This document shows, one piece after another, positions 19,048 to 38,350 of a stretch of 48,461 nucleotides of DNA. The notes under the pieces were generated by a model. It searched no databases. It was given only the letters and a program-made list of their open reading frames with translations, and was not told the DNA's origin. A program made the translations under genes and the position numbers. This DNA comes from a virus. Lineage: Duplodnaviria; Heunggongvirae; Uroviricota; Caudoviricetes. The first letter of the stretch is position 1. Every line of letters begins with the position of its first letter. The DNA lies in IMG/VR virus record IMGVR_UViG_2778261094_000010, positions 1-48,461 of that record; one strand, given 5' to 3'.

Positions 19048-19128
19048 AAAAACATCCCTGAAAGTGGGTACCGGTAATACTGAAAATTTATTCCATTAAA
19101 TGAGCATTGTCCTCTCTCATCCATTCCG

Positions 19129-21130: not shown

Positions 21131-21418
21131 GTTCTTTTTTCGCCCAATTATTTTCAAAAAAATTCCCGTGCACAAAAATTTGAGGAGGCGGTCGGTGTCC
21201 GGCAGGGACGGTTTCGTCCTGAAAACCACCCCCACCCCCTCTGACGGCCTCACCAGCGATTGCGAAAACATTCCATGACCTCGCGGTCACGGTCGGTTAA
21301 TCACTTCGCTGTGGTGCGTTTTGTGCGCCCTGTCCTGTTGGCTTTGTGCCCTGTCTCCTGTGTCTTCCATAAGTCACGCTGCCTTATCAGTCCACGTATC
21401 AGCCTGGTTTGCTCCTGT

Positions 21419-21859
21419 TCAGTCATCATCGCCATACATCCAGTCGTTACGGTGTGCTGCCCGTTCTTCCTGCTCGCGATACATGCCCGCCTTACGGTTC
21501 GCTTTCGTGGCTGGATCTTCCCGTGTCGTCTTACGGTTGTGGCACGTCTGGCACAATGCCTGGTGGTTCCACTCAGGCCAGAAGAGAACATCACCGCCGC
21601 CATTGATGGGGATGATGTGATCCACCACAAGAGCTGGCGTATAAATCCCCTTAGCCAGACAACGCACGCATAACGGGTTTTTGCTCAGGTACAGGGCGCG
21701 GTATTTGTCCCACTGTCGGGAATACCCGCGCGCGCGGCGGTGTCCCCGTCTGGCATCCTCTGCACGCCATGCAGCCCGTCTGTGCTCTTCACACTTGCCG
21801 GACTTCACGCGCTTATTACAGCCCGGCTCAGTGCATCGCCTTAATGGTTGCCACGGCAT
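21419..21859 (-). CDS. HNH endonuclease (terminase-associated)
   Basis: Cys-rich zinc-finger motifs (CNKRVKSGKCEEH, CVRC, CQTCH) and HNH-like His/Asn; located upstream of terS-terL as in HK97-like packaging modules. Confidence 0.85.
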   Translation of the reverse strand: MPWQPLRRCTEPGCNKRVKSGKCEEHRRAAWRAEDARRGHRRARGYSRQWDKYRALYLSKNPLCVRCLAKGIYTPALVVDHIIPINGGGDVLFWPEWNHQALCQTCHNRKTTREDPATKANRKAGMYREQEERAAHRNDWMYGDDD

Positions 21860-22161
21860 CAGTACACCCCCACATCACGATAAACCGACCAGAGCGCAGA
21901 AATAGCCATAGGCAGTTCAGACTGCTCCACTGGTGAAACTGCTTCCCTGTTCTCGTACAGGAAAGCGATGTACATCAGGCAACCAACACGCATTGCCGGG
22001 GTAAATTCCAGCCCGTCTTCAAAACGTTTCCCGATATGCTTCTGGCAGGCTTCCAGCGCCGCATCGGTATACATTTTCAGAAGTTCGCCTTCACCGGATA
22101 AATCATCATCAAGTCGAAGATGTGCCCTGACTTCATCAGGTGTAATTCTGGCTTCACTCAT
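21859..22161 (-). CDS. Satellite head-tail connector protein (gp6-like)
   Basis: Translation from MSEARITPDEVRAHLRLDDDL parallels the helper gp6-like protein (MLLKEEEIKSHLRLDD); GGGAGA ribosome-binding site before the ATG at 22161. Confidence 0.7.
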   Translation of the reverse strand: MSEARITPDEVRAHLRLDDDLSGEGELLKMYTDAALEACQKHIGKRFEDGLEFTPAMRVGCLMYIAFLYENREAVSPVEQSELPMAISALWSVYRDVGVY

Positions 22162-23368
22162 CTTTTCTCCCTTTAATTTCCACAGTCTGTTTCCATGCCT
22201 GGCTGAACTCATCACCACCTTCACGCGGCGGCATACCCTCGCGTTCGCGAGCTTCGTTCGGATTCATGATCCCGCTCTTAATCCCTTTCTCATACGTGGC
22301 ATAACGTTCGGTGGGTGTGGCGCGCAGTAAATCGGCTGAATCAAACTCAACCAGATAACGGGTACCAGGTACGGGAGAAGTCACCAGCAAAGCGGCCTTG
22401 ATTTGCTGTTCGAAGTTCGCCAGCCACGGGCGCATTGTCATGGTCAGAAATGCGCGGCTCGCCTCACTGAAATTGCTGTAGGTGCTGTTGCTGTATTCCT
22501 GAAGAAAAATCGGCGACACGTTGAACATCCTGGCGATGTCTTCAATGGAGAAGCGACGGGAGGCCAGCCATTCCGCATCCTGGTTACTCATCCCCAGCTG
22601 CCTGTAATCCATGCCCCCTTCAAGGATTGGCGTTTTTCCGGCATTTTTCGCCCCCTTGTAGCGTTCCAGTGCGTCTAATGCCTGTTTACCTTTCACGCCG
22701 TCCAGCCATTCACCTGACGTGATAATCCCTGCCGCCATCATGCCATCTTTCATAATGCTGGCTCCGTGACGCTGTTGAGCAAGGCCAAGCCCCAGCGCCT
22801 CACGGCAAATCGTGACGGGGGAACGCCCCAGAAAGCCATCATCCGAGGCATAGCGGAGATGCAGAACTTCTTCCTGTAAATACGTGCGCACCGTTCCTGT
22901 ACAGGGTTCGGTGATGGTATAGCGGTATTTGTGTGTGCCTGTGCGTTCCGGTACAACACACCCCGGCGCATAAGGATGAAGTGATTTTGGCTGCCCGTCC
23001 CGCCCCCACTCAATAACCGCATAGGCGTTACCGTTCAGCAGGCAGTGACGCATCATTGTGCGTTTAAACTGGTAAGGTGTCAGGCACGAATTAGGCTGCT
23101 CATTCAGCAGAATATCTACCGGGTGACTGTCCAGCCATTCCCGCGCCTCTCTGCCCTTATCATTGCGTACCAGATACAGGTAACACGGCATCGTGGCCAC
23201 CGCCTCAGCGATGACAGAAACCGCGTTCATCACAGCAGGCAATGATTCAGCCGTCCCGGCAGAAACATATTCTCCGGATCCGGTATTTGGTACACCAGAC
23301 AACGCCAGAAAATCATCAATGGACAGGTTACGCAGATCGCTTTTTTTACGACTAAAAGGCCACCACAT
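22154..23368 (-). CDS. Satellite portal protein (HK97 family)
   Basis: Portal-like sequence; start assigned to the ATG at 23368 (MWWPFSRKK), one nt after the protease stop. Confidence 0.85.
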   Translation of the reverse strand: MWWPFSRKKSDLRNLSIDDFLALSGVPNTGSGEYVSAGTAESLPAVMNAVSVIAEAVATMPCYLYLVRNDKGREAREWLDSHPVDILLNEQPNSCLTPYQFKRTMMRHCLLNGNAYAVIEWGRDGQPKSLHPYAPGCVVPERTGTHKYRYTITEPCTGTVRTYLQEEVLHLRYASDDGFLGRSPVTICREALGLGLAQQRHGASIMKDGMMAAGIITSGEWLDGVKGKQALDALERYKGAKNAGKTPILEGGMDYRQLGMSNQDAEWLASRRFSIEDIARMFNVSPIFLQEYSNSTYSNFSEASRAFLTMTMRPWLANFEQQIKAALLVTSPVPGTRYLVEFDSADLLRATPTERYATYEKGIKSGIMNPNEAREREGMPPREGGDEFSQAWKQTVEIKGRKDE

Positions 23369-23369
23369 A

Positions 23370-23930
23370 TCACAACCCCGCCAGTTCAGCCCAGCGATGA
23401 CGATTATTTCCTGCCGGGCGTAATTCAGGGTACTGTGCAAACAACGAACGGTGGGCAATCTCCACGCCGGATTCGGGATAAGCAGGCATCGATGTTATCG
23501 TGATTTCACGGAGTTCTGCGGCGGTTACAGTACGCAGATACGGTTTTTGCGCGATATTCCACTCCTCGCATAATGCGCGAAAGCCAAAGCTCATTCCTGT
23601 AATATCGCCACGTTCCACCAGCGTAAGCACATCTTTTCCAAGCTGGGTATTTGGCGGTGTCAGTTCAAAACGTAGCCCGGTGTTATCCTCAGTCAGTACC
23701 AGTGAGCCGGATTTGGTACGCCCCAGCAGTTGGGTATAGTCATGCTCATACAGACAGCGCACATCATTACCCGCCGCCAGATAGTCAGCAAAAGCCCCCG
23801 GCGTGAACTGTTCGCGAAACTCGTCCCAGATAATTTCTGAAAGGCTGTTCCAGCGAACGGCATAACCCACCAGTTTTTTATCGCTGGCGGTCAGTTCAGA
23901 TGTACGGATTTCAAAATCGGTGTTTTTCAT
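23370..23930 (-). CDS. Satellite prohead protease (HK97 family)
   Basis: Translation from MKNTDFEIRTSELTASDKKLVGYAVRWN with conserved His/Ser regions (YEHD, GMSFGF); GGAG ribosome-binding site before the ATG at 23930. Confidence 0.85.
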   Translation of the reverse strand: MKNTDFEIRTSELTASDKKLVGYAVRWNSLSEIIWDEFREQFTPGAFADYLAAGNDVRCLYEHDYTQLLGRTKSGSLVLTEDNTGLRFELTPPNTQLGKDVLTLVERGDITGMSFGFRALCEEWNIAQKPYLRTVTAAELREITITSMPAYPESGVEIAHRSLFAQYPELRPAGNNRHRWAELAGL

Positions 23931-23979
23931 CGGTGTACTCCATAAAGCTGAAAAAGGAGGCCGAAGCCCCCTTTGCTCA

Positions 23980-25125
23980 TTACTTGCCAGCCTGAATTTC
24001 CAGAATCTTGATGGCGTTCGAATCCACCACACCACCGCCCAGATATTTCTGGGTATAGATGTTAATGAATCCAGGCTCGCTGAAATCCGGACGGGTACGC
24101 GTACCGGTTTTATGGTCAACGATGAAATAACCGCGCTTAAAGTCACCGACTGCAATCACACCGTCCGGCATAAATTCCAGATATTCAACCGGAAGCCCCA
24201 GCAGAGAATCAGGATCACCAGCCTGTAAACGATCGCGCCAGATGTAATCACCAGTGGCATTTTTCAGTTTTTGTGCGGAGGCGGCTGTATTTGAGTTCAT
24301 CACCCATACAGCTTTTTTGCGGTACTTATTGCGCAGCGTAAATTTCAGGTCAATCAGCATATCGGCGCTGAGACTGCCAGTCACTTTTTTCGTCTGGAGC
24401 GTACCGAAAGGACGGGTTTTGTCATTATCCGTAGTGCGCGGGAAAGTCAGGAAACCTTTGGCTTTTTTCTCGCCATCACCGGAAACCAGATCCGTTTCTT
24501 CGGTATCAACGAAAGTGTCGCCAATTTCAGAAGATAACCAGCCCATAATATCGACTTCGGAAAAATCGATAATTTCCTGAGTGGTTTTCGGGTAAGCGTA
24601 GATCGGATACAGGCGGATACTGACTTCATTCAGTTTTGGGGTTGCCGTCTGGTTACGTGCCGCACCTTCTTCGCCGTGTCCCACGACCGCACCCCCGGCA
24701 GAAACCAGTTGCTTAAATTCATTACTGTGAATGGTTTTAACAGTACAGATTTTACGCATCACCGACTCATCAGAAAGCTGACGCATAATTTCTCTGTTCA
24801 GTTCCGGGATAACCGTATAACCACCATCAGCCGGAACACTGCCGGACAGGTTGCGGGTTTCCCCGGTCAGAATGTAAGAGCGTAGCTCGTCTTTGGTGAT
24901 TTTATCTTCGACGGGAACACCAGGCTGGTTACGTTCTTCATCAGCCACAGACTCGAGGCGGGAAATTTCTGTGTCGAGGGAATCGGCTTTTGCACGCAGT
25001 TCATCAAACTGTTTGCCCTCGTCATCGGTTAGACTGCGGTTTTCACTGTCGGCTTTTTCCAGCAGGGATCGCATCTGGTTTTTCAGGGCGGTTTTTTGCT
25101 GGCGGAGTTCGATTAATTTCTTCAT
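23980..25125 (-). CDS. Satellite major capsid protein (HK97 fold)
   Basis: 381 aa; N-terminal coiled-coil delta-like domain followed by an HK97 core (ADGGYTVIPEL); homologous in outline to the helper capsid protein but clearly diverged. Confidence 0.9.
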   Translation of the reverse strand: MKKLIELRQQKTALKNQMRSLLEKADSENRSLTDDEGKQFDELRAKADSLDTEISRLESVADEERNQPGVPVEDKITKDELRSYILTGETRNLSGSVPADGGYTVIPELNREIMRQLSDESVMRKICTVKTIHSNEFKQLVSAGGAVVGHGEEGAARNQTATPKLNEVSIRLYPIYAYPKTTQEIIDFSEVDIMGWLSSEIGDTFVDTEETDLVSGDGEKKAKGFLTFPRTTDNDKTRPFGTLQTKKVTGSLSADMLIDLKFTLRNKYRKKAVWVMNSNTAASAQKLKNATGDYIWRDRLQAGDPDSLLGLPVEYLEFMPDGVIAVGDFKRGYFIVDHKTGTRTRPDFSEPGFINIYTQKYLGGGVVDSNAIKILEIQAGK

Positions 25126-25360
25126 GAAGGTTTTCTCGCATTGGTTAAGATTCAGGACGTGAAACCAACACGGGGGGAGCGCCGCCCGACACTCTCGGCA
25201 TCTCGCAGATCAACCCGGCATCGCGCAGGGGGTCAGGCGGCATTGTGGCGGCTCACGTCTGAGTGCCACACGCCAACATATACATAAAAATCAGTATGTA
25301 AACATCAGCCAGAATCACCGAACAACCTGGAACAACCACGAACAAATAATTTACAAAACC

Positions 25361-25396
25361 TGAAAAAAGGCCCGGAAAAAATCCGGGCCTTTATCG
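25361..25396 (-). terminator. Rho-independent terminator (bidirectional hairpin GGCCCGG-N7-CCGGGCC flanked by A and T runs)
   Basis: Perfect 7-bp stem with A6 upstream and T-rich downstream, immediately 3' of the minus-strand gene ending at 25399. Confidence 0.7.
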
Positions 25397-25398
25397 CT

Positions 25399-25647
25399 TT
25401 ATTGTTTCACTGGCTCCCGCATTCTGCGTCTTATTTTCCACAAATATTCGATCATCGCTTCCACCTGCTCACGGTTGGTTGCGAAAATTTCCCCGGTCAG
25501 TGAGCTACGCAGAAAATCATGATGATCCACAAAAAATAACGCATCGGAAGAAAGCAACCGACGATATTTTTTTGCTGTCGTGGTTTCCAGATCATCAAAA
25601 CCATGAAGCTTTTTATGTTGCTGAACTTCTTCAAATGTCACTGGCAT
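25399..25647 (-). CDS. Hypothetical satellite protein
   Basis: 82 aa ORF overlapping the upstream gene end and followed by a terminator; no recognisable motif. Confidence 0.4.
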   Translation of the reverse strand: MPVTFEEVQQHKKLHGFDDLETTTAKKYRRLLSSDALFFVDHHDFLRSSLTGEIFATNREQVEAMIEYLWKIRRRMREPVKQ

Positions 25648-26180
25648 GTATCCCCCTTTGCTGCCCGGCGCTGGCGCTTGTGCTTCTCATTCAGCACCAT
25701 CAGCCGTGTTTCTGCCTCCTGCTGTTCCTGTGGTGTCACTTCCCCACATGGCTGGCCTTTCAGGTCGTAACGTGCGCCACCAGCTATCAGGGCGCGGTAA
25801 TAGCGCGGAGACTGCGCATAGGATGCCAGCGTCGCACGTAATACCCCCGACCCGAATGCCAGCCCCCTGACGGCGATATCCTGCATCAGGTCGTCGAATA
25901 TCCCCACCTTAAGCGGCTTCGGTGCTTTATGGCTGAATAAGTCAGGCCACATCTCAGTGAGGCGGTTAACGCGTCGGCGGTTTTTGCGCTGCCTTTTGGT
26001 CATATGCTGCCACGGTGTCGCCCCTGCGGTCTTCTGTTTGCGGCTCTGCTGTGCGTTCTGATTATCGGGTATCACTTTATGCGCCGATGTGGTTTTATCC
26101 TGCTCTTGCGCCGCCTGCGTCGTTTTCTGCGGCGTGCCGTAAATGCCTTTCGGCTTCCGGTTAATGGTCAGCGTTGTCAT
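25638..26180 (-). CDS. ProQ/FinO-family RNA-binding protein (putative RNA chaperone)
   Basis: Basic N-terminus, then a FinO/ProQ-like core (PLKVGIFDDL...RYDLKG). Confidence 0.55.
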   Translation of the reverse strand: MTTLTINRKPKGIYGTPQKTTQAAQEQDKTTSAHKVIPDNQNAQQSRKQKTAGATPWQHMTKRQRKNRRRVNRLTEMWPDLFSHKAPKPLKVGIFDDLMQDIAVRGLAFGSGVLRATLASYAQSPRYYRALIAGGARYDLKGQPCGEVTPQEQQEAETRLMVLNEKHKRQRRAAKGDTCQ

Positions 26181-26216
26181 GCCTTCCCCCGTAATTACTC
26201 TGTTCGCTGTTGTGAA

Positions 26217-26642
26217 TTAAAACGGTATGTTATCCCCGTACGGGTCATCGTGCTGGCTTGTCTGTTGTTTTGCCCTGTTCAGTGCGTCAGTGGCCTGGCC
26301 CTGTTGACCTTTTTTGCCGCCCGGTCGCGCCGTTCGCGCACTGATTACGCTGTCTGCAATAACCTGCCAGCCCTGCCGCGTTTCCCCGTTCTGGCCTGTC
26401 CACTGGCTCACCTGCATGTTACCCGCCACGCTCACCAGTTCGCCTTTGTGGTGTTTTGCCAGTGCGTCGGCCTGTCTGCCAAACGCCAGGACAGATAACC
26501 ACATCGTCGCCGTTCCGTCATCTGCCTGGCTGCACGGCAGGGGAACCGCCATACTCGCCATCGCCATTTGTGTCCCTTTGCTGGTGGTCTTTAACTGCGG
26601 GTCAGCCACCAGCCGCCCGTAAGCCGCTATCTGTGCTGTCAT
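26217..26642 (-). CDS. ssb: Single-stranded DNA-binding protein (SSB)
   Basis: OB-fold-like N-terminal region, Gly/Gln-rich linker and an acidic C-terminal tail ending DDPYGDNIPF (compare the canonical SSB DDDIPF tail). Confidence 0.7.
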   Translation of the reverse strand: MTAQIAAYGRLVADPQLKTTSKGTQMAMASMAVPLPCSQADDGTATMWLSVLAFGRQADALAKHHKGELVSVAGNMQVSQWTGQNGETRQGWQVIADSVISARTARPGGKKGQQGQATDALNRAKQQTSQHDDPYGDNIPF

Positions 26643-26706
26643 GCTGTCTGTTCTCCGGTTTTAACGTTGATTGTTACGCTTGTTTACACCCTTACGGTGA
26701 AATTCT

Positions 26707-26829
26707 GCGGGTTATAATCGCACTTTTGCGGGTTATAACTGCCGTTTTGCGGGTTACGTGCGGGTTATTGATTTCCTTTTTATTCATACAGTTAATGCAC
26801 TTATACACAGGATAACCCGCATAACCCGC
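26707..26829. repeat. Iteron cluster A (putative satellite replication origin): 4 direct GCGGGTTA(T/C) repeats, AT-rich spacer, 2 inverted ATAACCCGC copies
   Basis: Direct copies at 26707..26715, 26728..26736, 26749..26757 and 26760..26768; inverted copies at 26812..26829; located just downstream of the replication protein gene. Confidence 0.7.
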
Positions 26830-26852
26830 AACTTTTTACATCACACAGGGGG

Positions 26853-28976
26853 TTAATCTTCTGCCTCAGGCTGGAACATCAGCACGTAAAAAACATGCTG
26901 CTTCCCCCCAATTTTGCTGAGCGCCTTTTTCTTGTAACGGCGGTCGTTCCCCTTTTCCAGCATCCCCGCCGCATCAAGCGCTCTTGCAAAATGCGACGGG
27001 TTAAATCCCTGTGCGATCTCACCTTCAAACACATGCGGGAACGTGTAAAAACGGAACTCGTCATCTTCGTTTCTGATACTCCCCTTTCTGTATCCGGCAA
27101 GTTCTTTAATCGGTAAATCACGCTCGTCGGTGTTGGGCCACGGAAGGTATCTGCTGAATCCGAACGACGCTAAAAAAGCCTCTGCCTGTTCAACCATCTG
27201 TTTAAATTCCCTGTTACCCGTGCCGAACTCCTTCACCCAGGCATTAAAATTATGCTGTATGGCATCGCGGCACGCCTGAACATCCCAGCCAGTAATATGA
27301 CCGGACAACACTAACGCCGCCTCAAGCATGGCAAATCGCTCCCCCACACGGTGAACCTGTTCGCCGTAGCTCTCCGGTATCAGGTTGCGCCACCGTTCAC
27401 GGCATGCCCTTACCGTGTCCTTTGCTTCCTGCTGGTGGTTTGCCAGCCATTTAACCCACTCTCGACCCGCCGCCCCGTGATTTTCTGTCCAGGCATCCTT
27501 TAACGCGTCTGCGTGCGCCTTTCCGGTGCTGTATTCGTGAAACTGCGTGGCTTTTTCCATCGGCACGTTAAGCAGGCGGACAAGCTGCCCCGCCTTGACT
27601 TTTATCCCCTCCGTTTTGAGGAATGTTTCAACGTCCATTTCTCCGGTGCTGATTGCCACCGTGCGCCAGTGTTTGATCTCCCTGTTGCCGCCGTCCTTCG
27701 CCCCCTGTAATTTCCCCGAACCGTTAAACAGCGTATAGGCTGACGTGGACACCTCCCGCGCGTTTCCGGCCTGACCTATTTCATCCAGGGGTAACAGCCC
27801 ATCATTATGTGCTTCGGCCTCGTTGGCGATACCTAACGCCGTGCCGTACCAGGTCAGCCGTTGTGCGTCCGGCTCTCCCCATAAACTGGATGCGATGTTC
27901 TGTGTGGTGGTTTTCCCTGCCGATGACTGTTCGAAAAGATGTACCCCGAAGCCGTCAGCCCCCACCAGCCCGATTAATGGTGCGGATAACGATACCGCCA
28001 CACCCAGCATCATGGACGGATTACCACCAGCCAGCCGCGCCACGGTATCGCGCCAACCCTCCGCCGTTCCTGCCACGGAATAGCCATTAACAGCAGCCGT
28101 TTTTCCGGTAAACAGGGCTGGCTTTTCGCAATCACCAATGACCGAACCGTCCGGCATGATGTACGCGCCAAAATGCCAGCCCGTTGTTGTGCTTAACTGC
28201 CATTCCTCATGGCTTCCGCTTAACTGCATCCAGTCAGCCAGGATAGCCCTGTATTTGCCGTTAGTTGTTACGTTCAGTCCGTGGTCTTTCAGCAGCCGCC
28301 AGCCGTCACGGTCGCCAATGCCACCGCACGGAACCGCCATTGTGATGACTTCATGGTTTGCTAATTTTTTCCAGCGCATCACGCGGTAATGCTCTTTACC
28401 GATTGTCCCCGTTCCCAGTAGTTCAAGCGGGGAACATAACCACGTCTCAGGCCGGATAATTTCGCCTGACTGCTTATCCACTTTTGGCGTTACCCAGAAA
28501 ACACCATCGGCGCGACTTTCAACGCGGGGCTTTAATTCATCATCGCCCTGGCTTTCTGTAATTTTTTTCTTTAAAGGCAACACCAGACTTTCCCCGCGCT
28601 CGTATTCGTCTTTGAGGCGAGGCAACTGGTCGGATAAATCCGCCGGGCTGGTGTCAGTTATACCCGCGTATTCGTATACGGTCTTCACGCCAGCCACAGC
28701 CAGCAACGTGACGATCTGTGTAAGGCTACGTTCAGTGATGTGCCCTGCGCGGTAAACACGCACACACTGACGGCTATCATCAATAATTTGATAACCGGTA
28801 ATATCTTTCAGGTGTTCATCTGACAGAACGACAGGTGGCACATTGTCGGCGGCAATATGCTTACCTGCCCATTCCTGCCACTCTTTCGCATGGCTCCACG
28901 CATCACTACCCGCAAAGATGATAACCTCCGTCATTTTGTCGGCTGGCTGGTGCTTTAAGTTTGGTGCGCGCTTCAT
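26853..28976 (-). CDS. Replication protein, DUF927-type primase/helicase (P4 alpha-like or PICI Rep-like) with Walker A motif
   Basis: 707 aa; Walker A-like SSAGKTT within a DUF927-like helicase core; adjacent iteron cluster; ATGA-type overlap with the upstream ORF. Confidence 0.75.
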   Translation of the reverse strand: MKRAPNLKHQPADKMTEVIIFAGSDAWSHAKEWQEWAGKHIAADNVPPVVLSDEHLKDITGYQIIDDSRQCVRVYRAGHITERSLTQIVTLLAVAGVKTVYEYAGITDTSPADLSDQLPRLKDEYERGESLVLPLKKKITESQGDDELKPRVESRADGVFWVTPKVDKQSGEIIRPETWLCSPLELLGTGTIGKEHYRVMRWKKLANHEVITMAVPCGGIGDRDGWRLLKDHGLNVTTNGKYRAILADWMQLSGSHEEWQLSTTTGWHFGAYIMPDGSVIGDCEKPALFTGKTAAVNGYSVAGTAEGWRDTVARLAGGNPSMMLGVAVSLSAPLIGLVGADGFGVHLFEQSSAGKTTTQNIASSLWGEPDAQRLTWYGTALGIANEAEAHNDGLLPLDEIGQAGNAREVSTSAYTLFNGSGKLQGAKDGGNREIKHWRTVAISTGEMDVETFLKTEGIKVKAGQLVRLLNVPMEKATQFHEYSTGKAHADALKDAWTENHGAAGREWVKWLANHQQEAKDTVRACRERWRNLIPESYGEQVHRVGERFAMLEAALVLSGHITGWDVQACRDAIQHNFNAWVKEFGTGNREFKQMVEQAEAFLASFGFSRYLPWPNTDERDLPIKELAGYRKGSIRNEDDEFRFYTFPHVFEGEIAQGFNPSHFARALDAAGMLEKGNDRRYKKKALSKIGGKQHVFYVLMFQPEAED

Positions 28977-29287
28977 TTTGCCTTTCCCCGTTCACGAATA
29001 ATTTCACGTACTGCCTTAATGCGTTCCATTCCTGTAACGCGCATGATTCTGTCGATGTCGCTTAATTCTGCTGGTGGTGCTTTGCTTACCAGGGGGAACT
29101 CCCTTTCAAAGCGCATATGCGACGACACGCAGGGATGCGCATAACCTTCGCGGATATAGGTCACGCGAAAATCATCGACGGTTTTAATCGTTATCGTGCT
29201 GCCGTATTTATCCCGGAAAATATCGCCGGGGCGGATTTCAGGCCGAGCGTGACCGCTGGCAGTAAAGCCAGAATTTTTCTTTTTCAT
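28973..29287 (-). CDS. Hypothetical satellite protein
   Basis: Start assigned to the ATG at 29287 (MKKKNSGF); translationally coupled to the replication gene. Confidence 0.4.
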   Translation of the reverse strand: MKKKNSGFTASGHARPEIRPGDIFRDKYGSTITIKTVDDFRVTYIREGYAHPCVSSHMRFEREFPLVSKAPPAELSDIDRIMRVTGMERIKAVREIIRERGKAK

Positions 29288-29294
29288 GTTTTTT

Positions 29295-29543
29295 TTACTC
29301 CAGAGGCAGCTTTTTAGCGGCGAGCTCAATATCAGATGTCAGAGAAACCTGTGTATTTGCCAGGTCTAACAACAAAGAAATAAGAATTTCTTCTCTGCTA
29401 TCGGATTTATCGGTGCTAAGGCTGTTCATCCACATATTGACGACTTCCCTGATTTTTTTCGCAGAGTGCAGGGCTTCAAATGCCAGGCCTTCAATATCAT
29501 GTTTATTTCGCATAATCGCCCCCGCCATTTTCACAATCAGCAA
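29295..29543 (-). CDS. Hypothetical satellite protein
   Basis: 82 aa ORF in the early operon; no recognisable motif. Confidence 0.35.
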   Translation of the reverse strand: MLIVKMAGAIMRNKHDIEGLAFEALHSAKKIREVVNMWMNSLSTDKSDSREEILISLLLDLANTQVSLTSDIELAAKKLPLE

Positions 29544-29748
29544 TCAGGATGGCTTTTGCCTCATTCAGCGCCATATCAGCACTAAATTGCATAAGAGCCA
29601 GTGAGTGAGGAACGAAAGCCCCGGTATATTCTGTTTCGCTGGTGGCGTGCTTATGCGCCTTGTCTGCGATAACAGAAATATCAATCAGCGCGTGCATCAG
29701 CGTTTTGATGGCTTCGGCGGCTGCGTCCGGTGTGGTTTTATTATGCAT
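29503..29748 (-). CDS. Hypothetical satellite protein
   Basis: 81 aa ORF in the early operon; no recognisable motif. Confidence 0.35.
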   Translation of the reverse strand: MHNKTTPDAAAEAIKTLMHALIDISVIADKAHKHATSETEYTGAFVPHSLALMQFSADMALNEAKAILIADCENGGGDYAK

Positions 29749-29944
29749 AGGTTTCCCCCTGGCGAATACGGGCGGCGAATACCATCACGCAGCCATCAGG
29801 AGATTGCTGACGCGCTTCCTGTTCGCTGGTGGCCTCAATGGTAATCACGCGCGGTTGTGCCGTGCTCAGGGCGATAAAACGCCAGATGTATTTATTCAGG
29901 TTGTACGAGTCCCGCCCTTGCGGGTGTCTGGTATAATTTCTCAT
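29741..29944 (-). CDS. Hypothetical small protein, first gene of the minus-strand early operon
   Basis: 67-codon ORF (MRNYTRHPQGRDSYNL...) with a GAGG ribosome-binding site, transcribed divergently from the operator region. The listed 349-aa ORF is treated as a read-through artefact. Confidence 0.4.
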   Translation of the reverse strand: MRNYTRHPQGRDSYNLNKYIWRFIALSTAQPRVITIEATSEQEARQQSPDGCVMVFAARIRQGETYA

Positions 29945-30041
29945 AGCTACCTCGATACGCTTTCTATCGTTGGTGGTTAGAAGCCCGGTTAGTGTTAGCG
30001 CACTGCCGGGTTTCGTCGTTTCTGCACCTTGCATCAGTAAG

Positions 30042-30093
30042 GTGTTGAACACCAATTTAAGCCCTGGTGTTAAACACGTCAAGTGTTGAACAC
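30042..30093. promoter_or_regulatory. Operator-like triple palindrome GTGTT(G/A)AACAC in a divergent promoter region
   Basis: Near-palindromic 11-mers at 30042..30052, 30067..30077 and 30083..30093, between the minus-strand early operon and the plus-strand small regulator gene. Confidence 0.6.
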
Positions 30094-30143
30094 TTATTTT
30101 TTTTCCTGCATACTGCATTTGTTTTTTGTAAGGGGTACACAAC

Positions 30144-30323
30144 ATGGCAACAAAAGCAGTAAACGCAAAATCACAAACAGTTGCGGCAAGGGTTCCGCAT
30201 GAAGTTATGAACAATGTTGAGGCGGTAAAAATGCCTGGTGAAAGTACAGGGCAGTTTGTAACAGCAGCATTAAAGCGAGAAGTTGAATACCGCCAGCGTC
30301 GCAAGGCCAAAGAGCAGGAATAA
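30144..30323 (+). CDS. Small putative DNA-binding regulator (59 aa)
   Basis: ATG at 30144 preceded by an AAGGGG ribosome-binding site, immediately downstream of the operator palindromes; small basic protein with a KREVEYRQRRKAKEQE tail. Confidence 0.5.
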   Translation: MATKAVNAKSQTVAARVPHEVMNNVEAVKMPGESTGQFVTAALKREVEYRQRRKAKEQE

Positions 30324-30380
30324 CCATCACCAGCGCCGTGGTGTAAGGTATTACGGCGCATTGCTATGCAGGACAACACA

Positions 30381-30554
30381 ATGACCGATAAAGAATTGAC
30401 CAAAACATTATCACCGACACGGAAAAGACGGCGCAGAAAGATAGAGCATGAATCAGAAAGATTCGCACCTTGTTCGTTTGCTCTTGAGAAATTCCTTAAA
30501 GAGCGCAGGAAAAAACTCTCGTTGCAAACCTTGGAACGAACCAAATCTGACTGA
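30381..30554 (+). CDS. Hypothetical small basic protein
   Basis: 57-codon ORF (MTDKELTKTLSPTRKRRRRK...) with an AGGA ribosome-binding site, followed by tandem terminators. Confidence 0.3.
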   Translation: MTDKELTKTLSPTRKRRRRKIEHESERFAPCSFALEKFLKERRKKLSLQTLERTKSD

Positions 30555-30620
30555 TCACATTGCCCACCAGCCGCAAATGTGGCATTGTTGGTGATGCTTT
30601 TGTTTTCCCTTGTTCCCACT

Positions 30621-30650
30621 GGCGACCCTTTTGCGGTCGCCTTTGTTTTG
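30621..30650 (+). terminator. Rho-independent terminator (GGCGACC-CTTTTGC-GGTCGCC followed by TTTGTTTTG)
   Basis: Perfect 7-bp stem followed by a T tract, downstream of the plus-strand small ORFs. Confidence 0.7.
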
Positions 30651-30745
30651 CCTGTTATCCTGCAACTATGGTCATTTCGACCACGGTTGATATAATCCCC
30701 CCGCACAGATTCATTTTTTGCGCAGTAGGTTAATTGTTCGCAAGG

Positions 30746-30780
30746 GCGCTCCGGTAACGGGGCGCTTTTTGTTTTTACCC
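30746..30780 (+). terminator. Rho-independent terminator (8-bp stem with GTAA tetraloop followed by TTTTTGTTTTT)
   Basis: GCGCTCCG-GTAA-CGGGGCGC hairpin (one G-U pair) followed by a T-rich run; second of two tandem terminators. Confidence 0.65.
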
Positions 30781-30934
30781 ACCAGCACAATAAAAATCTT
30801 CATTTTCCATTTTTGTAAAATTTCATGCTTTCCGGACGACTGGTAATATGTCATTTTTTAGCAGAAGATTTTGCCTTGCTGGTGGGTAGCTTCCCGGTCA
30901 ACACGATGTACCGTATAATCAACACCGCGTGTGG

Positions 30935-31531
30935 TTACTGAATACGCTCACCAAAGTAAAACTCAGGCTGGTATTCACGTATCAGCCTTTTTTCTTCTTC
31001 CTCCAGTTCACGCTTTTTGCGCTTACATGCCTGTAGCTCCCTCCCCTTCTCGCTGGCACTTATCTGGTATTGCTCTTTGCGGCGGGAAAAATCCTGTAAT
31101 GCTCCCCACGGGATACCATAAGCCCCCGTTTTTCTGATACCCGGTATCACATTTCTGAATACCCAATTACTGAAACGATGGGCGAACGTGCCAGGATTAA
31201 CAGCTTTGCGACTTCTGGCGATCAACTTGTAAAAACCTGATTCTGATACAACATTCCAACTTCTGGCACCACCACGCTTACCTGAATGACCCTCGGTTAA
31301 AGCTAGGGTCATTACCTCATCGCTATCCAGAACTGAAACAGCATCGGTAACGTTGCTAATTTCCAGCGCCGCACACACATCAGCGCCAACAAACCACGGA
31401 TCGCCGTTCAGATACACCACGCGAACGTTCACACTATCAAAGCGCAGAACGACCAGATCACGAATATCACAGAATTTTTTCACATGACGTGCGTCACCCT
31501 TGCCCGTCGCGGCAATATTTTTATTCATCAC
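30935..31531 (-). CDS. Bro-N domain protein (antirepressor-like)
   Basis: Bro-N signature (FDSVNVRVVYLNGDPWFVGADVCAALEI...SGFYKLIARSRK) with a Lys/Glu-rich coiled C-terminus. Confidence 0.7.
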   Translation of the reverse strand: MMNKNIAATGKGDARHVKKFCDIRDLVVLRFDSVNVRVVYLNGDPWFVGADVCAALEISNVTDAVSVLDSDEVMTLALTEGHSGKRGGARSWNVVSESGFYKLIARSRKAVNPGTFAHRFSNWVFRNVIPGIRKTGAYGIPWGALQDFSRRKEQYQISASEKGRELQACKRKKRELEEEEKRLIREYQPEFYFGERIQ

Positions 31532-31585
31532 TTTCTACCTCACATACAAAAAACCCCGCATTGCGTGGTGCGGGGTTGTCGGTAA

Positions 31586-31864
31586 TTACTTATTGGCGTT
31601 TTTGTATGGGCTGTTTACTTCCTTTACTCCTGGCGGATGCATAACCCACCAGAGCACATCAGAGAGCAACCAGGAAACAGACACTTTCCCTAAATGAGCA
31701 CGAGCAGGAAATGCTCCCTCCTGTTCAAGTACCCAACGTCTGCTTCTTGAAAGCCCGGTACGATTGGCACACTCATGTTCGCGTATACGGCGATCATACG
31801 GTTCGCCATGTTCTTTCAGAATCTGAATGCGTTCTTCGGGTGTAGGATAAATAAATTTTTGCAT
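31586..31864 (-). CDS. AlpA-like helix-turn-helix regulator (second copy)
   Basis: Translation from MQKFIYPTPEERIQILKEHGE with an AlpA-type C-terminal helix-turn-helix (TGLSRSRRWVLEQEGAFPARAHLGKVSVSWLLSDVLWW). Confidence 0.5.
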   Translation of the reverse strand: MQKFIYPTPEERIQILKEHGEPYDRRIREHECANRTGLSRSRRWVLEQEGAFPARAHLGKVSVSWLLSDVLWWVMHPPGVKEVNSPYKNANK

Positions 31865-31927
31865 AAAAATATCACCTATAAAAAAACCCGCCAAAAGACG
31901 GGTTGATTATATCTCATTTAATTTAGT

Positions 31928-32161
31928 TCAGGGTTTCCATTCACCCTTTACCCATTCCAGCACCTCAGATAAGCGCCAGACTTTTGTTTGTGGGCCAATA
32001 CATATTTTCCGTGGAAATTTTCCTTCCTTTTCAAGTAATGCTCTGTGTCTCCTGCCAAGAGCTGTTAACCATGCACATTCATCTTCCTTAATCATCCTGT
32101 CGATTGTTTTATCATTTTCAAGTTCTTCACGCGTAACTATTTCAATCATTACCGTCACCAC
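31928..32161 (-). CDS. alpA: AlpA-family transcriptional regulator / excisionase-like protein
   Basis: 77 aa with AlpA-like helix-turn-helix (LTALGRRHRALLEKEGKFPRKICIGPQTKVWRLSEVLEWV); immediately downstream of and overlapping the integrase gene. Confidence 0.75.
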   Translation of the reverse strand: MVTVMIEIVTREELENDKTIDRMIKEDECAWLTALGRRHRALLEKEGKFPRKICIGPQTKVWRLSEVLEWVKGEWKP

Positions 32162-33350
32162 TAATTAGCTTATTCAGATAGTCGTACCACCAGTTCATAG
32201 CTTCTTTTTTTCTGTCCATATACTGACTTCTGTTATAAACCCCGGCAACACCGCCTAATGTGTGCCCAAGCAACTGTTCAACCACATTATGTTCAAAACC
32301 ATGATCACTTAGCTTTGTGGCAAACACTCTTCGCATATCATGCGCCGTCCATTTTTCCGAGTGTTTCATCCTTTTCCATGTCTTACCGATAGTTACGCTT
32401 GCCGTACACTGACGCATATCAAACCCAATCACATTTTCTTTGTTACCTGTTATTTTTTTTAACGTAACTAACCAGTTAAACATGCCATCAGGAATCGGTC
32501 TGATTATTTCCCTGCCATTTTTGCTATGATCAGCGGGAACGCGCCATAATTTCTTATCAAAATCCCACTCTACCCAGGACGACAGTAATACTTCTGACAG
32601 TCGACAACCAAAAACTACCAGGAAACGTAAAATAATTCGGTTTTCATATGATAATTCGTGATTGTCATAATCAGTATTAATACTTCGCCATAAATCTCTG
32701 ATTTCATCATCTGTTAAAACCCTGCTTCTTCGCGCAGACTTTTTTCCCACATCACAGACCTCAAGATCATCAATTTCATGACTAATCGCGTATTTTCTTA
32801 CCCTACAAAATTTAAGCGCCTGTTTTGATATACGCAACAAAGCTCCGGCCTGTACAGGTGCTACTTTTTTTATTTTGTCAAAACACTTGATCCACATAGA
32901 TATAGAGCAATCACTAAGTGGTACATGACCAATCACCGGATAAATATGTTTACCAAAGCACTGCCTGATATGTTCTGCTCCCCTACGCTTATCCATTGCA
33001 TAATTATCAAGCCAGTATTCAAGTGCCTCACGAACGGTAACAGGTTGCAAGGTGGCTTCCCGTTCAATTTTTATCTGAATCCGTGGATCTCTGCCCTCCG
33101 CAAGCCAGGTTCGACACTGATCGCGCATCTCTCTCGCTGATTTGAGACTCAGATCAGGATATTTTCCAAGTGTCAGCCAGATGGGCGCGGTTCCCCTTCC
33201 CGCCAGTCTGTAAAAGAAAACAAAACTAACACATCCGTATTTACTGACCCGTACCGAAAGCCCGTTACCATCAGCGATGGTTTCCTGCCTCTCACTCCTG
33301 CGCCCAAGCAGGGAACGAAGTTTTTTATCGCTCAGTTTGTTTAGCGCCAT
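32142..33350 (-). CDS. int: Tyrosine integrase (P4-type site-specific recombinase)
   Basis: C-terminal catalytic motifs (HDMRRVFAT, LLGH, GVYNRSQY); start assigned to the ATG at 33350 (MALNKLSDKKL); lies about 170 bp from the right junction core. Confidence 0.9.
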   Translation of the reverse strand: MALNKLSDKKLRSLLGRRSERQETIADGNGLSVRVSKYGCVSFVFFYRLAGRGTAPIWLTLGKYPDLSLKSAREMRDQCRTWLAEGRDPRIQIKIEREATLQPVTVREALEYWLDNYAMDKRRGAEHIRQCFGKHIYPVIGHVPLSDCSISMWIKCFDKIKKVAPVQAGALLRISKQALKFCRVRKYAISHEIDDLEVCDVGKKSARRSRVLTDDEIRDLWRSINTDYDNHELSYENRIILRFLVVFGCRLSEVLLSSWVEWDFDKKLWRVPADHSKNGREIIRPIPDGMFNWLVTLKKITGNKENVIGFDMRQCTASVTIGKTWKRMKHSEKWTAHDMRRVFATKLSDHGFEHNVVEQLLGHTLGGVAGVYNRSQYMDRKKEAMNWWYDYLNKLISGDGND

Positions 33351-33517
33351 GTGATTTATAACCCGTTTTTGCAATACACAGTGCAATACACAAATGATGA
33401 AAACAGCCAGAACCTTCCAGAAAAAACAAAAACGACGAACAAGAAAAAATCTTTTTCTTTCATTTGGTTACTAAAAAAATCAGGACAGGTCGCACTGTTG
33501 TTACGGCGTGATGTTAC

Positions 33518-33537
33518 TTTCTTGGTAAAAAAATTCA
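33518..33537. repeat. Right attachment junction (attR-like): exact 7-bp core TTGGTAA at 33522..33528 plus imperfect flanking match
   Basis: Direct repeat of the 18605..18611 core; boundary between satellite DNA (integrase side) and the helper terL N-terminal fragment. Confidence 0.65.
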
Positions 33538-34549
33538 CCCGCGCAGAGACCTGTTCTTTCGCTTTTTTCGCCAGGCGACGCAGATCATCCCAGCGTTTAC
33601 AGATGCCCAGGCCGGGATTCGCTTTCTGCCAGACCGTTTCATCAAACGGATCATCTCCCTCATCGAGGGTGTAAATAATCGCAAAGTAGGAGTCGTCTTT
33701 TACCGCGCCCTCCACGTCGCTGTTATAGCCTCGCAATACCTTGATGGCGTAATCGCGTTGCTCGTAACAAATCCCTTCCTTGTTAAAGCCAGCCGTGGTG
33801 ATACCAAATAACAGGGACTGCAGACGGGCACCGGTTGCCGTTTCCAGAACGTCCCACACGTCGCGGGTTTTATGTGCATGCAGCTCATCAATAATGGCGC
33901 AGTGGATGTTCAGACCATCCAGGTTGTTTGCATCCGAGGAAAGCGGTTCAAATTTTGATGCGCTCTGCTCCTGGTAAATCGCCAGCTTGTTGAAATCAAA
34001 CAACCGCCCGAGTGTCGATCGGGCTTTTCTGACCATATTTTTGGCGTCTTCAAACACGATTCTGGCCTGGTCACGCGTGGTTGCGGCTGAATACACCTCA
34101 GCCCCGCCTTCACCATCTGCCCCCGTCATATACAGACCGATACCTGATGACAGGGTTGATTTTGCGTTTTTACGGGCGACTTCGTTGTACGCTGTCCGGA
34201 AACGGCGCACCATCACCGGGCGTCCGCTGCCATCGCTGCGCATGACAACTTCCCCGGTCTCTTCATTCACCAGCGGAATGACAAAACCAAAAATATTAAT
34301 GAGGATAAAAACATGCCAGTCCATCAGTTCAATGGGCTGACCTGCCAGCGCCCCTTTTACATGGGGCACAAATTTGTAGAAATTCAGGATGTGCTGCGCA
34401 CGGGGTTCACTGAAATAAATCCCCCGCTCTTCGCCGTACTTCAGATCATCAAGAAAACGCTGGCAGGCCAGACGGACAAATTCACCAGCGACAATTTCTC
34501 CTGCAACAACACGTTCGGCGTAGCGGATCCCGTCAGCCACTTTTGCCAT
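33522..34549 (-). pseudogene. terL: Helper prophage terminase large subunit, N-terminal ATPase-domain fragment (5' part of a terL split by the satellite)
   Basis: Translation through DETVWQKANPGLGI...ARVNFFTKK parallels satellite TerL (DDPAMWIKANPNID...EMLTKRFNIW), then runs into unrelated low-complexity sequence (VTSRRNNSATCPDFF...) after the junction at about 33522; the ORF's true stop is at 33356. Confidence 0.8.
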
Positions 34550-38253: not shown

Positions 38254-38266
38254 AGGGTACAGATAA

Positions 38267-38343: not shown

Positions 38344-38350
38344 TATGTGA

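Follow-up and report, generated by a model that had tools for sequence, protein, structure and literature searches.

The window, meaning the whole stretch of 48,461 nucleotides that was analysed, carries a satellite inserted in the terL gene of a helper prophage, and the cluster under study (alpA1, alpA2 and bro) adjoins the integrase gene int of this satellite. The genes and borders concerned are the following.

41742..42437, minus strand: Q antiterminator of the helper prophage (PF06323, 5.2e-84), co-oriented with the satellite and upstream of it
33356..34549, minus strand: N-terminal fragment of the helper terL (TerL_ATPase, and TerL_nuclease positions 2-68 of 286)
18605..33528, minus strand: whole satellite (14.9 kb) flanked by the 7-bp TTACCAA, a helper-embedded PICI (HE-PICI) in prophage terL whose late module is of the capsid-forming type
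33522..33528, no strand: attL core TTACCAA, matching the published att identity
32142..33350, minus strand: int, tyrosine integrase (Arm-DNA-bind_3 1.1e-17, Phage_integrase 1.4e-18; 1209 nt in RefSeq)
31928..32149, minus strand: alpA1 (Phage_AlpA PF05930, E 2.5e-9, 37.3 bits), candidate excision (directionality) factor
31586..31864, minus strand: alpA2 (Phage_AlpA PF05930, E 7.2e-10, 39 bits), candidate master activator
30935..31528, minus strand: bro, Bro-N protein of 197 aa (Bro-N PF02498, E 2.1e-16, 60.7 bits)
18605..18611, no strand: attR core TTACCAA, the other border of the satellite
17875..18604, minus strand: C-terminal fragment of the helper terL (TerL_nuclease positions 64-283 of 286, 2.8e-37)

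The full open reading frames extend over 30935-31531 (bro), 31586-31894 (alpA2), 31928-32161 (alpA1) and 32142-33386 (int). The likely true starts are ATG 33350 for int, ATG 32149 for alpA1, which overlaps the int stop codon, ATG 31864 for alpA2, preceded by AGGTGA, and ATG 31528 for bro, preceded by GAGG; these agree with the starts annotated in RefSeq for a copy of 99.8% identity. All cluster matches exceed the curated Pfam cut-offs (25.6 bits for Bro-N, 21 bits for Phage_AlpA), confirming the two AlpA-family genes and the Bro-N gene that a preliminary description had placed beside the integrase on the basis of the letters of the sequence.

The satellite interrupts terL at TTACCAA, at about position 66 of the nuclease domain, and carries no replacement for the sequence that it disrupts. 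The att cores are precise and their joining restores terL exactly: the flanks joined in silico match the intact gene over 600/600 positions in six genomes, and the uninterrupted site is present in 905 of 5426 complete E. coli genomes. The minus strand is used throughout by Q, the lysis genes, HNH, terS, the terL fragment, int, the alpA genes, the primase and the capsid genes, so that the key satellite genes are co-oriented with the helper late operon. In every class-A locus with enough upstream sequence, int is preceded at about 144 nt by the same terL fragment. The att identity and the attL sequence both coincide with the Eco...15.A_Terminase_1_246 entries in the supplement of PMC10111431, and it is this agreement that places the integrase in the late-gene-targeting clade with site-specific att.

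A doubled motif was located in both attP arms:

33371..33391, minus strand: GTGTATTGC-N3-GTGTATTGC in the attL arm, some 20 nt before the int ATG
18687..18707, minus strand: second copy of the doubled GTGTATTGC motif, in the attR arm (motif scan of the window)

The four occurrences of GTGTATTGC in the window all fall in these two doublets, one per arm; the distance to the core is 79-99 bp in the attR arm and 134 bp in the attL arm. The motif is accordingly doubled on both sides of the attP centre, as in the HE-PICIs, for which PMC10111431 gives about 81 bp upstream and about 132 bp downstream of that centre. The zones are also in the order of the HE-PICIs, with int, alpA1 and alpA2 followed by Bro-N, then by the Icd-like gene, DUF4222, DUF927 primase and SSB, and finally by the genes from capsid to TerL. 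These features identify int, alpA1 and alpA2 as the Integration zone, and bro as the Bro zone, of an HE-PICI belonging to A:Terminase_1:246, a published group from E. coli. Genes for capsid, protease, portal, connector, HNH, TerS and TerL are present and tail genes are absent, according to the RefSeq annotation of the copy that is 99.8% identical over int-bro and to open reading frames of matching size in the window. The satellite is, to judge by this gene content, PICI-like with its own capsid operon, as had been proposed initially; as a capsid-forming PICI (cf-PICI) it would build small capsids of its own and need only the tails of its helper.

The complete cluster was found in 36 of the 5426 complete E. 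coli genomes and in about 30 IMG/VR loci, several of which are overlapping stretches of the same contigs. A scan of genome contigs with the integrase returned only two loci, both from Xenorhabdus. Between alleles of alpA1, alpA2 and bro, pN/pS was 0-0.3 in most informative comparisons, and the highest value, 0.48, is based on very few differences; int, alpA1, alpA2 and bro all evolve under purifying selection. Together with the recurrence of the cluster and the conservation of the AlpA pair in Salmonella and Xenorhabdus, this shows that the genes are no chance reading frames. A decaying remnant with no current function would be consistent with the frameshifts in int or bro of some relatives and with the truncated appearance of many helper prophages of HE-PICIs noted in PMC10111431, but all four reading frames are intact in the window, pN/pS is low, the att cores restore terL exactly and the module recurs in 36 complete genomes, all of which make such decay very improbable.

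The preliminary description regarded the two AlpA genes as a duplication. Two genes there are, but a recent tandem duplication is ruled out by the 46% identity of their products and by their membership of two separate orthologous groups, which are kept paired in Escherichia, Salmonella and Xenorhabdus. Members of the AlpA1 group share 46-60% identity and a C-terminal W-x-K-G-x-W-K motif, and their divergence follows that of Int. The AlpA2 group is more conserved than Int or AlpA1 (63-76% identity), its representatives are nearly invariant among the sampled E. coli class-A elements, and it is the group closest to the AlpA of EcCICFT073 (49-53%). AlpA2 also matches phrog_2790 over its full length (2.4e-34) and has an extra N-terminal helix.

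The linkage between alpA1 and int goes beyond their overlap. In two lineages (L102 and L106/L107) AlpA1 is fused in frame to Int in a protein of 474-477 aa, the AlpA domain scoring 30 bits against the cut-off of 21, and in L143-L146 the two genes are in one frame, separated by a single stop codon. In a different integrase class the position of alpA1 is occupied by a Xis-like HTH gene. Such fusions are rare, since a profile search of 1.84 billion representatives yielded 536 AlpA1-like proteins with none of integrase size among the best 150, and since int and alpA1 overlap without fusion in six further IMG/VR relatives. The overlap with int and the fusions in two lineages suggest that AlpA1 is probably the excision (directionality) factor and partner of Int. 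AlpA2 may be the counterpart of the EcCICFT073 master activator and is a candidate activator. That AlpA proteins are known activators of induction and excision in Gram-negative PICIs, as the preliminary description stated, is supported by the literature (PMC6092414; 10.1101/2022.09.08.507074). It must be noted that one AlpA is enough for excision in EcCICFT073, so that either paralogue could be the directionality factor here.

Both proteins score above the Phage_AlpA gathering threshold, and the AlphaFold model of AlpA2 (pLDDT 81.7) adopts a winged-helix fold resembling excisionases and MerR-type domains, with the GIsul2 excisionase 8c3t as best PDB match (rmsd 1.0 A). No relevant literature on PDB entry 8C3T was found. 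These properties bear on whether one AlpA could be a processive antiterminator like AlpA of Pseudomonas aeruginosa, which bypasses intrinsic terminators lying directly upstream of its targets (PMC7969949), a geometry similar to that of the terminators T1 and T2 described below. The P. aeruginosa protein is an eight-helix Q-like protein (PMC9371919), whereas AlpA1 and AlpA2 are winged-helix proteins of 73-92 aa that fall outside the Q-like family, a PDB search with their profile returned no entry other than the GIsul2 excisionase 8c3t, and the AlpA2 model is of the excisionase and MerR type. An antiterminator of the P. aeruginosa type is rejected on the grounds of size and fold, processive antitermination by one of these AlpA proteins is hardly credible, and the common name appears to be a coincidence.

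Two intrinsic terminators are predicted within the cluster from a scan, from folding and from their position, each with a hairpin and a U-tract:

31885..31904, minus strand: T1, between alpA1 and alpA2 (eight-pair stem and T7 tract; -13.8 kcal/mol, z -3.2)
31552..31577, minus strand: T2, directly upstream of bro (nine-pair stem and T6 tract; -17.5 kcal/mol, z -2.8)

Among 200 shuffled sequences none folded as well as T1 and two as well as T2. In all lineages examined, alpA2 has an intrinsic terminator ahead of it; hairpins with a U-tract but with differing stem sequences occupy the T1 position in Xenorhabdus, Salmonella and other lineages, and T1 was seen in about ten distinct sequences with several different stems. 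T2 is present in all 18 distinct sequences upstream of close bro homologues; these represent three integrase classes, and one compensatory change in the stem was read directly from the sequences. Xenorhabdus has no T2, and there an AntA/AntB gene directly follows alpA2.

In the three chromosomal PICIs compared, alpA is preceded by a gap of 195-430 nt, with a promoter-like site in two of the three, and no strong terminator follows it; one of them, L110, has a short hairpin and a T8 run upstream of its alpA. The Xenorhabdus element L004, at a chromosomal, non-prophage site, has a weak hairpin at the T1 position (four pairs, -5.5 kcal/mol, z +0.5), and T1 may therefore not depend on the embedded position. 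An exclusive association of T1 and T2 with embedded satellites is thus only partly supported, by their absence from the three chromosomal PICIs and with the weak T1 of L004 to set beside it.

Our best explanation, of which we are about half convinced, is that the cluster consists of the Integration and Bro zones of an HE-PICI with a capsid-forming late module, driven by Q-antiterminated read-in from the helper. Read-in from helper late transcription has been proposed earlier for the HE-PICI class in PMC10111431. Upon induction of the helper prophage, Q-modified, terminator-resistant RNA polymerase from the late promoter would read terS, then the terL fragment and then int-alpA1, and Int with AlpA1 as directionality factor would excise the satellite and restore terL. 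The same polymerase would cross T1 and T2 and thereby switch on alpA2 and bro; AlpA2 would then sustain satellite gene expression, with Bro-N as a DNA-binding or antirepressor-type accessory. Transcription that is not antiterminated would end at T1 or T2 and leave alpA2 and bro silent in the lysogen. The order of coupled int-alpA1, T1, alpA2, T2 and bro is compatible with the layered switch suggested in the preliminary description, and the "helper-directed" input invoked there may already be supplied in cis by the position of the satellite inside the helper terL in late-operon orientation, the decisive context, which that description had overlooked.

A trans-regulated PICI front end may be envisaged instead, in which a diffusible helper factor acts on weak activator-dependent promoters at alpA2 and perhaps alpA1, T1 and T2 are punctuation or insulators, and the two AlpA proteins are partly redundant. 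We rate this as possible but rather doubtful. Helpers do induce alpA of EcCICFT073 in trans from a plasmid reporter (PMC6092414; for induction in trans see also PMC11773190), so that cis read-through is not needed for AlpA induction generally, and a weak T1 is kept in the chromosomally placed L004. In the excised circle, furthermore, the att structure would place int-alpA1 downstream of the satellite late operon, and T1 would then be the natural end of that transcript. Against this, both U-tracts lie only about 20 nt from the next start codon, leaving no intergenic room for a promoter, and no sigma-70-like promoter matching at least 9 of 12 positions was found on the coding strand in the alpA2 and bro gaps, where the matches were weak (8 of 12). 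A TATAAT lies just upstream of T1 in the window and is not conserved in relatives. Redundancy fits poorly with two groups that are distinct across three genera, unequally conserved and unequally linked to int. The chromosomal PICI comparison, it must be said, rests on three elements only.

Q-antiterminated read-in can also be extended into a three-layer, cis-wired sensor of helper late expression, composed of terL-coupled int, Int-linked AlpA1 and T1/T2 as Q-filters, and this extension we put forward tentatively. The frame of the terL N-terminal fragment continues into satellite DNA as far as a stop codon 5 nt ahead of the int ATG, and T6 and T7 frame variants occur at this junction. In the first layer, int would have no ribosome-binding site of its own and would be translated by ribosomes finishing (T6 allele) or continuing from (T7 allele) the broken terL frame. 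In the second, AlpA1 would be a dedicated directionality factor, hence the natural fusions to Int in some lineages. In the third, T1 and T2 would be passable only by Q-modified, terminator-resistant polymerase, so that AlpA2 and Bro would be licensed by the helper antiterminator and not by a diffusible inducer.

The Bro-N domain scores 60.7 bits against a cut-off of 25.6. The model of the protein has a disordered basic N-terminus, a Bro-N core with pLDDT 70-85 and a long C-terminal helix (141-186), and its best PDB match is the N-terminal domain of a baculovirus protein, 4ye7. [quoted passage not shown] This role for Bro would be in line with the full-length match to phrog_2593, "anti-repressor" (1.3e-77), with the name "antirepressor protein" given to homologues in their source annotations, and with the AntA/AntB antirepressor genes that take the position of bro in related satellites. 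The alleles also vary only in a central patch, residues ~48-94, as expected of a specificity determinant. However, these annotations derive from the family name alone, Bro consists of Bro-N and one helix with no KilA-C/ANT-type C-terminal domain detected by Pfam, and the embedded bro, with two terminators ahead of it in the late operon of the helper, would be made only after helper induction. The one Bro-network satellite protein for which PMC10111431 cites a function, PLE CapR, is moreover a DNA-binding repressor. Taken together, these observations make the antirepressor role unlikely.

The control region announced in the preliminary description proved to be real, with a divergent promoter region between the YlcI/YnfO-family and Icd-like genes that spans about 29945-30145:

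30621-41, 30742-69 and 30965-88, plus strand: three terminator-like hairpins (terminator scan)
30144..30323, plus strand: YlcI/YnfO-family small protein (NCBIfam NF041551, 2.1e-16), divergent from the replication operon; candidate repressor
30037..30099, minus strand: control region, promoter-like TTGACG-17-TAAATT and three GTGTT-N-AACAC palindromes
29741..29944, minus strand: Icd-like gene, first of the replication/late operon (NCBIfam NF033153, 9.6e-20)

The plus-strand hairpins would end convergent transcripts from the ylcI side before they reach the 3′ end of bro, or within that end. The only Rfam hit within 18000-34000 resembles symR and lies antisense to the leader of the icd-like gene; at 32.8 bits it falls short of the gathering score of 61.

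The phage factor that turns on alpA in Gram-negative PICIs is still sought (PMC6092414), and for embedded satellites the cue may be nothing more than the antiterminated transcript of the helper itself. The punctuation of int-alpA1, alpA2 and bro by terminators makes this idea concretely checkable. Furthermore, classical PICIs combine the excisionase and activator roles in one AlpA, and the conserved AlpA pair together with the natural Int-AlpA fusions could allow these roles to be separated.

Among known proteins, AlpA1 and AlpA2 match best, in sequence and in structure, the GIsul2 excisionase (8c3t) and RdfS (8dgl), which are excisionases of the AlpA/MerR-like winged-helix fold, but identity is only about 33% over 51 residues and a shared function is putative. 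In P4 the AlpA-family vis, required for excision, is followed by the Bro-network eta, the expression of which is gated by transcription termination (PMC10111431). P4 differs in using CI RNA/seqA, whereas a P4-like immunity RNA (C4/isrK) in or near bro was rejected here, with no Rfam match at E<=1 in 18000-34000; P4 also has one AlpA homologue, uncoupled from its int. EcCIMP1 resembles the satellite in having two AlpA-family genes, with tested roles as master regulator and excisionase-like protein (PMC11773190). Its genes are at opposite ends and on opposite strands, and the second acts on helper excision, whereas those of the window are in tandem on the same strand and adjoin int.

In EcCICFT073, AlpA stimulates its own promoter and sets off induction (Fillol-Salom et al. 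2018, PMC6092414). Identity between AlpA2 and this protein is 53%, and an activator role of AlpA2 is proposed from the similarity. The downstream backbone is also alike, with YlcI/YnfO divergent from Icd-like and then DUF4222, primase, SSB and PerC. EcCICFT073 differs in having a single alpA, which lies 365 nt downstream from int, follows a promoter-like site and has no terminator after it, and in having only a degenerate Bro-like ORF, while AlpA2 of the window adds an N-terminal helix and a C-terminal tail. The cf-PICI prototype EcCIEDL933 (10.1101/2022.09.08.507074) has a similar late module from capsid to TerL without tail genes, and its alpA is essential for induction (10.1101/2022.09.08.507074). 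It differs in its single alpA, its int and alpA being described as "identical" to those of classical PICIs, and in that the paper treats chromosomal attB sites whereas the site here is a prophage gene.

The closest known system is the HE-PICI group A:Terminase_1:246 (PMC10111431). The available passages of this paper make no mention of two AlpA orthologous groups, Int-AlpA fusions, T1/T2 or the terL-int frame junction, and the two old AlpA lineages and the conserved terminators between the genes appear to be unreported details. Its sister group A:Terminase_1:132 has "Int,Phage_AlpA,Phage_AlpA" profiles in the supplement (Tommasini, Mageeney & Williams 2023, PMC10111431). The group A:Terminase_1:246 shares with the satellite of the window the location inside prophage terL in late-gene orientation, the 15 kb size, the TTACCAA att, the attL sequence, the doubled motif in both arms and the zone order Integration (Int and AlpA), Bro, Replication and Late, with no structural difference. 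The cluster is ordinary in that it comprises the standard front-end modules of an already catalogued satellite, and it is already known as a standard part of this published element family.

The preliminary description had read two AlpA-family genes and a Bro-N gene beside the integrase as a layered or helper-directed switch with a duplicated activator. The genes themselves were confirmed, all above the Pfam cut-offs and on the minus strand, which carries the genes of the window, the YlcI/YnfO gene of the satellite lying on the opposite strand. The interpretation found partial support. Together with the intervening terminators (T1, T2) and the helper antiterminator Q, the genes are:

41742-42437, minus strand: helper Q, upstream of the satellite (5e-84)
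32142-33350, minus strand: tyrosine integrase, int (Arm-DNA-bind_3 1.1e-17, Phage_integrase 1.4e-18)
31928-32149, minus strand: alpA1 (Phage_AlpA 37.3 bits, cut-off 21)
31904-31885, coding (minus) strand: T1, alpA1/alpA2 gap, canonical in the terminator scan
31586-31864, minus strand: alpA2 (Phage_AlpA 39 bits, cut-off 21)
31577-31552, coding (minus) strand: T2, alpA2/bro gap, canonical in the scan
30935-31528, minus strand: bro (Bro-N 60.7 bits, cut-off 25.6)

Both AlpA proteins carry the PHROGs label 'excisionase and transcriptional regulator' (phrog_2790 matches AlpA2 over its full length, 2.4e-34, and AlpA1 more weakly, 2.2e-13), and Bro that of 'anti-repressor' (phrog_2593, 1.3e-77). The cluster was found again in 36 of 5426 complete E. 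coli genomes, and a bro homologue alone (~82-86% identity) in ~190 further ones. For all three small genes pN/pS was 0-0.3 in most informative allele comparisons, the highest value (0.48) coming from very few differences, and alpA2 was near-invariant across the eight loci compared of class A, the integrase class of this element.

The helper terL frame upstream of int encodes the ATPase domain and, of the 286 nuclease-domain positions, only 2-68; the remainder of that domain (positions 64-283) picks up at 17875-18604. TTACCAA stands at both ends of the 14.9-kb insert (33522-33528 and 18605-18611), the flanks joined in silico are identical (600/600) to intact terL of six genomes, and 905 of 5426 genomes have the site without an insert. 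Gene content was taken from a RefSeq-annotated copy, 99.8% identical across the int-bro region, in which int, two HTH regulators, BRO-N, YlcI/YnfO (opposite strand), Icd-like and DUF4222 genes are followed by DUF927 primase, SSB and PerC genes and then by a late module of major capsid, protease, portal, connector, HNH, TerS and TerL; the annotation of this copy holds no tail genes. Upstream on the same strand the helper prophage encodes a kinase, a phosphatase, a methylase, three tRNAs, lysis genes, HNH and terS. The kinase (eukaryote-type Ser/Thr, 40833-41672) and the PP2C phosphatase (40093-40836) lie directly downstream of Q, and are followed by the DNA methylase and the tRNA genes Met, Arg and Arg (38177-38426). 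Other late-gene sites are used by relatives in O157:H7 F3113 (L002) and GZEC065 (L003), namely a lambda-type gpA terminase and a portal gene, and in Xenorhabdus (L023), just after gpA-gpW, each satellite being co-oriented with the late operon of its prophage.

The notion of a fresh duplication did not hold, since AlpA1 and AlpA2 share 46% identity over 57 residues and belong to two orthologous groups when the window is set beside E. coli, Salmonella and Xenorhabdus relatives. Group A1 (46-60% identity) has a C-terminal W-x-K-G-x-W-K motif and its gene was always directly 3' of int, while group A2 (63-76%) has an N-terminal extension, K-F-x-Y-P-T-P-E-x-R-I-Q-I-L, and its gene always came next. 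The AlpA of the chromosomal PICI EcCICFT073, shown in experiments to be an autoactivator that sets off excision and replication when expressed (PMC6092414), is nearest to A2 (49-53%). The start codon of alpA1 overlaps the stop codon of int, the two genes overlap by 23 nt in six other IMG/VR relatives, and in L143-L146 int and alpA1 share one frame with a single stop codon between. Three relatives encode Int-AlpA1 as one in-frame ORF of 474-477 aa with Arm-DNA-bind_3, Phage_integrase and Phage_AlpA domains:

184-1608 of L102 (E. coli): Int-AlpA1 fusion
2949-4382 of L106 (Salmonella): Int-AlpA1 fusion
1458-2891 of L107 (Salmonella): Int-AlpA1 fusion

Such fusions are rare as judged from sequence, no integrase-sized protein being among the best 150 of 536 AlpA1-like representatives, and the literature covered on these satellites yielded no description of a natural fusion of a tyrosine integrase and an excisionase-like protein. 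Where satellites of this family carry an integrase of another class, int is followed by a gene for an Xis-like protein with a weak HTH_17 match. On these grounds we infer a directionality-factor role for AlpA1 and an activator role for AlpA2. The AlpA fold alone cannot discriminate between these roles; in the model of AlpA2 (pLDDT 81.7) one additional helix precedes the winged helix at the N-terminus, and the structures that match it best are the GIsul2 and RdfS excisionases. Some public proteins (P0166, P0170, P0174 and others) have tandem AlpA-type domains, two to four per polypeptide, with four matched stretches in the 301 aa of P0166.

At the junction (33340-33530) the broken terL frame crosses attL and ends at a TAA (33358-33356) 5 nt 5' of the int ATG (33350), where no obvious ribosome-binding site was seen. 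In 8 related loci, including L010, L014, L015 and L021, a T6/T7 homopolymer difference at ~33445-33450 joins terL-N and int in a single open frame of 808 aa. The shared or adjoining frame and the lack of an obvious ribosome-binding site suggest that int is translationally coupled to helper terL.

The region 29500-33600 holds 11 terminator-like sites against 4.4 +/- 2.2 expected, and folding supported both T1 (z -3.2, 0/200 shuffles as good) and T2 (z -2.8, 2/200). T1 keeps its position in every examined lineage with an A2 gene, in about ten distinct sequences with several different stems, and is weak in one Xenorhabdus locus. T2 lies ~22 nt 5' of the bro ATG in 18 of 18 distinct upstream sequences, representing ~90 fetched loci (some overlapping) of three integrase classes, and its stem shows one compensatory change (CCCCGC/GCGGGG versus CCCCTC/GAGGGG). 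At both terminators only ~20 nt separate the U-tract from the next start codon, and no sigma-70-like site of at least 9 of 12 was found on the coding strand in 30850-33600. The A/T-rich motif AAATTAAATG precedes the T1 hairpin by 10-20 nt in the window (31905-31925) and in L142/L143, distant relatives with ~68% identical A2.

One may envisage that upon helper induction Q-modified polymerase, coming from the late promoter, would traverse terS and the terL fragment and enter int-alpA1, that Int and AlpA1 would excise the satellite and thereby repair terL, and that the same terminator-resistant polymerase would cross T1 and T2 and express alpA2 and bro, whereupon AlpA2 would run the satellite programme as in EcCICFT073. 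Unmodified polymerase would halt at T1 and T2, and the activator is therefore proposed to be off in the lysogen. We give this scheme roughly even chances. Against it as the whole story, the alpA of a classical PICI is induced in trans (PMC6092414), a weak hairpin at the T1 position is kept in a chromosomally located relative, and T2 is absent in Xenorhabdus. The AlpA of P. aeruginosa, which bypasses terminators just upstream of its targets (PMC7969949), was rejected as an analogy, being an eight-helix Q-like protein (PMC9371919) unrelated to the small AlpA1 and AlpA2; the common name is misleading.

In the Bro model the N-terminus is basic and disordered, the Bro-N core has a pLDDT of 70-85, and a single long helix forms the C-terminal part, the nearest solved folds being a baculovirus protein N-terminal domain (4ye7) and Ski/Dachshund DNA-binding domains. 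Allele differences are almost confined to one central Bro-N patch (residues ~48-94), both ends being invariant. One int-alpA1-alpA2 module is paired with two bro alleles, and alleles are common to different integrase classes; T2, the ribosome-binding site and the bro 5' end form a junction conserved in three of these. The pairing and the shared junction fit cassette exchange, as PMC10111431 describes it for the 'Bro network'.

The control region (29945-30145) contains three GTGTT-N-AACAC palindromes around a promoter-like TTGACG-17-TAAATT, a layout shared with different palindromes by related satellites including EcCICFT073. The palindromes look like immunity-type operators for the divergently encoded YlcI/YnfO, possibly a master repressor; as far as we are aware, such a repressor is said to be missing in the Gram-negative PICI literature. 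A second small ORF after ylcI (30366-30554, plus strand) matches phrog_21027, of unknown function (2e-13), and is annotated differently in RefSeq in the near-identical copy L001. The icd-like leader (29945-30017, plus strand) forms a hairpin whose stem varies among relatives with pairing kept, and its opposite strand gives a sub-threshold symR-like Rfam match (32.8 bits, gathering score 61); antisense RNA may control the replication operon. There are 14 occurrences of the 8-mer GCGGGTTA/TAACCCGC in the window, and two clusters account for 11 of these. One cluster (26707-26830) lies shortly after the primase gene, where an ori would be expected; the other (18895-19047), between satellite terL and attR, might be a cos site or a further ori.

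Helper-embedded PICIs were described by Tommasini, Mageeney and Williams (PMC10111431). According to that account, their integrases form a clade that uses 14 target sites in late genes of prophages, the satellites point the same way as the late operon, their genes fall into four zones, namely Integration (Int, AlpA), Bro, Replication and Late, and both attP arms carry a doubled DNA motif; entry of helper late transcription into the satellite is proposed there as well. Within the window the doubled motif GTGTATTGC-N3-GTGTATTGC is confined to 33371-33391 and 18687-18707, and its distances from the att core are close to the published ones. The supplement lists E. coli elements 'Eco...15.A_Terminase_1_246' with att identity 'ttaccaa' and the same attL sequence as in the window, and, for the sister group A:Terminase_1:132, profiles with 'Int,Phage_AlpA,Phage_AlpA,...' at the start and a capsid-to-terminase module at the end. 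The late module corresponds to the capsid-forming PICI type, in which alpA is essential (10.1101/2022.09.08.507074). Given this layout and late module, the cluster is a known module of a catalogued element and had been correctly described; our confidence in the identity of the element is far higher than in the mechanism. Neither the element nor its gene order is new, and for the sister group tandem AlpA genes have been tabulated. Incremental additions, drawn from sequence comparison, are the two putative AlpA orthologous groups, the predicted Int-AlpA fusions, the conserved candidate terminators T1 and T2 and the apparent terL-int frame junction. In contrast to the ~20-nt spacing here, three chromosomal PICIs (EcCICFT073, EcCIMP1 and a tRNA-Gly element) have a gap of 195-430 nt upstream of alpA, with a promoter-like site in EcCICFT073 and EcCIMP1, and tightly packed downstream genes in place of a strong terminator after alpA.
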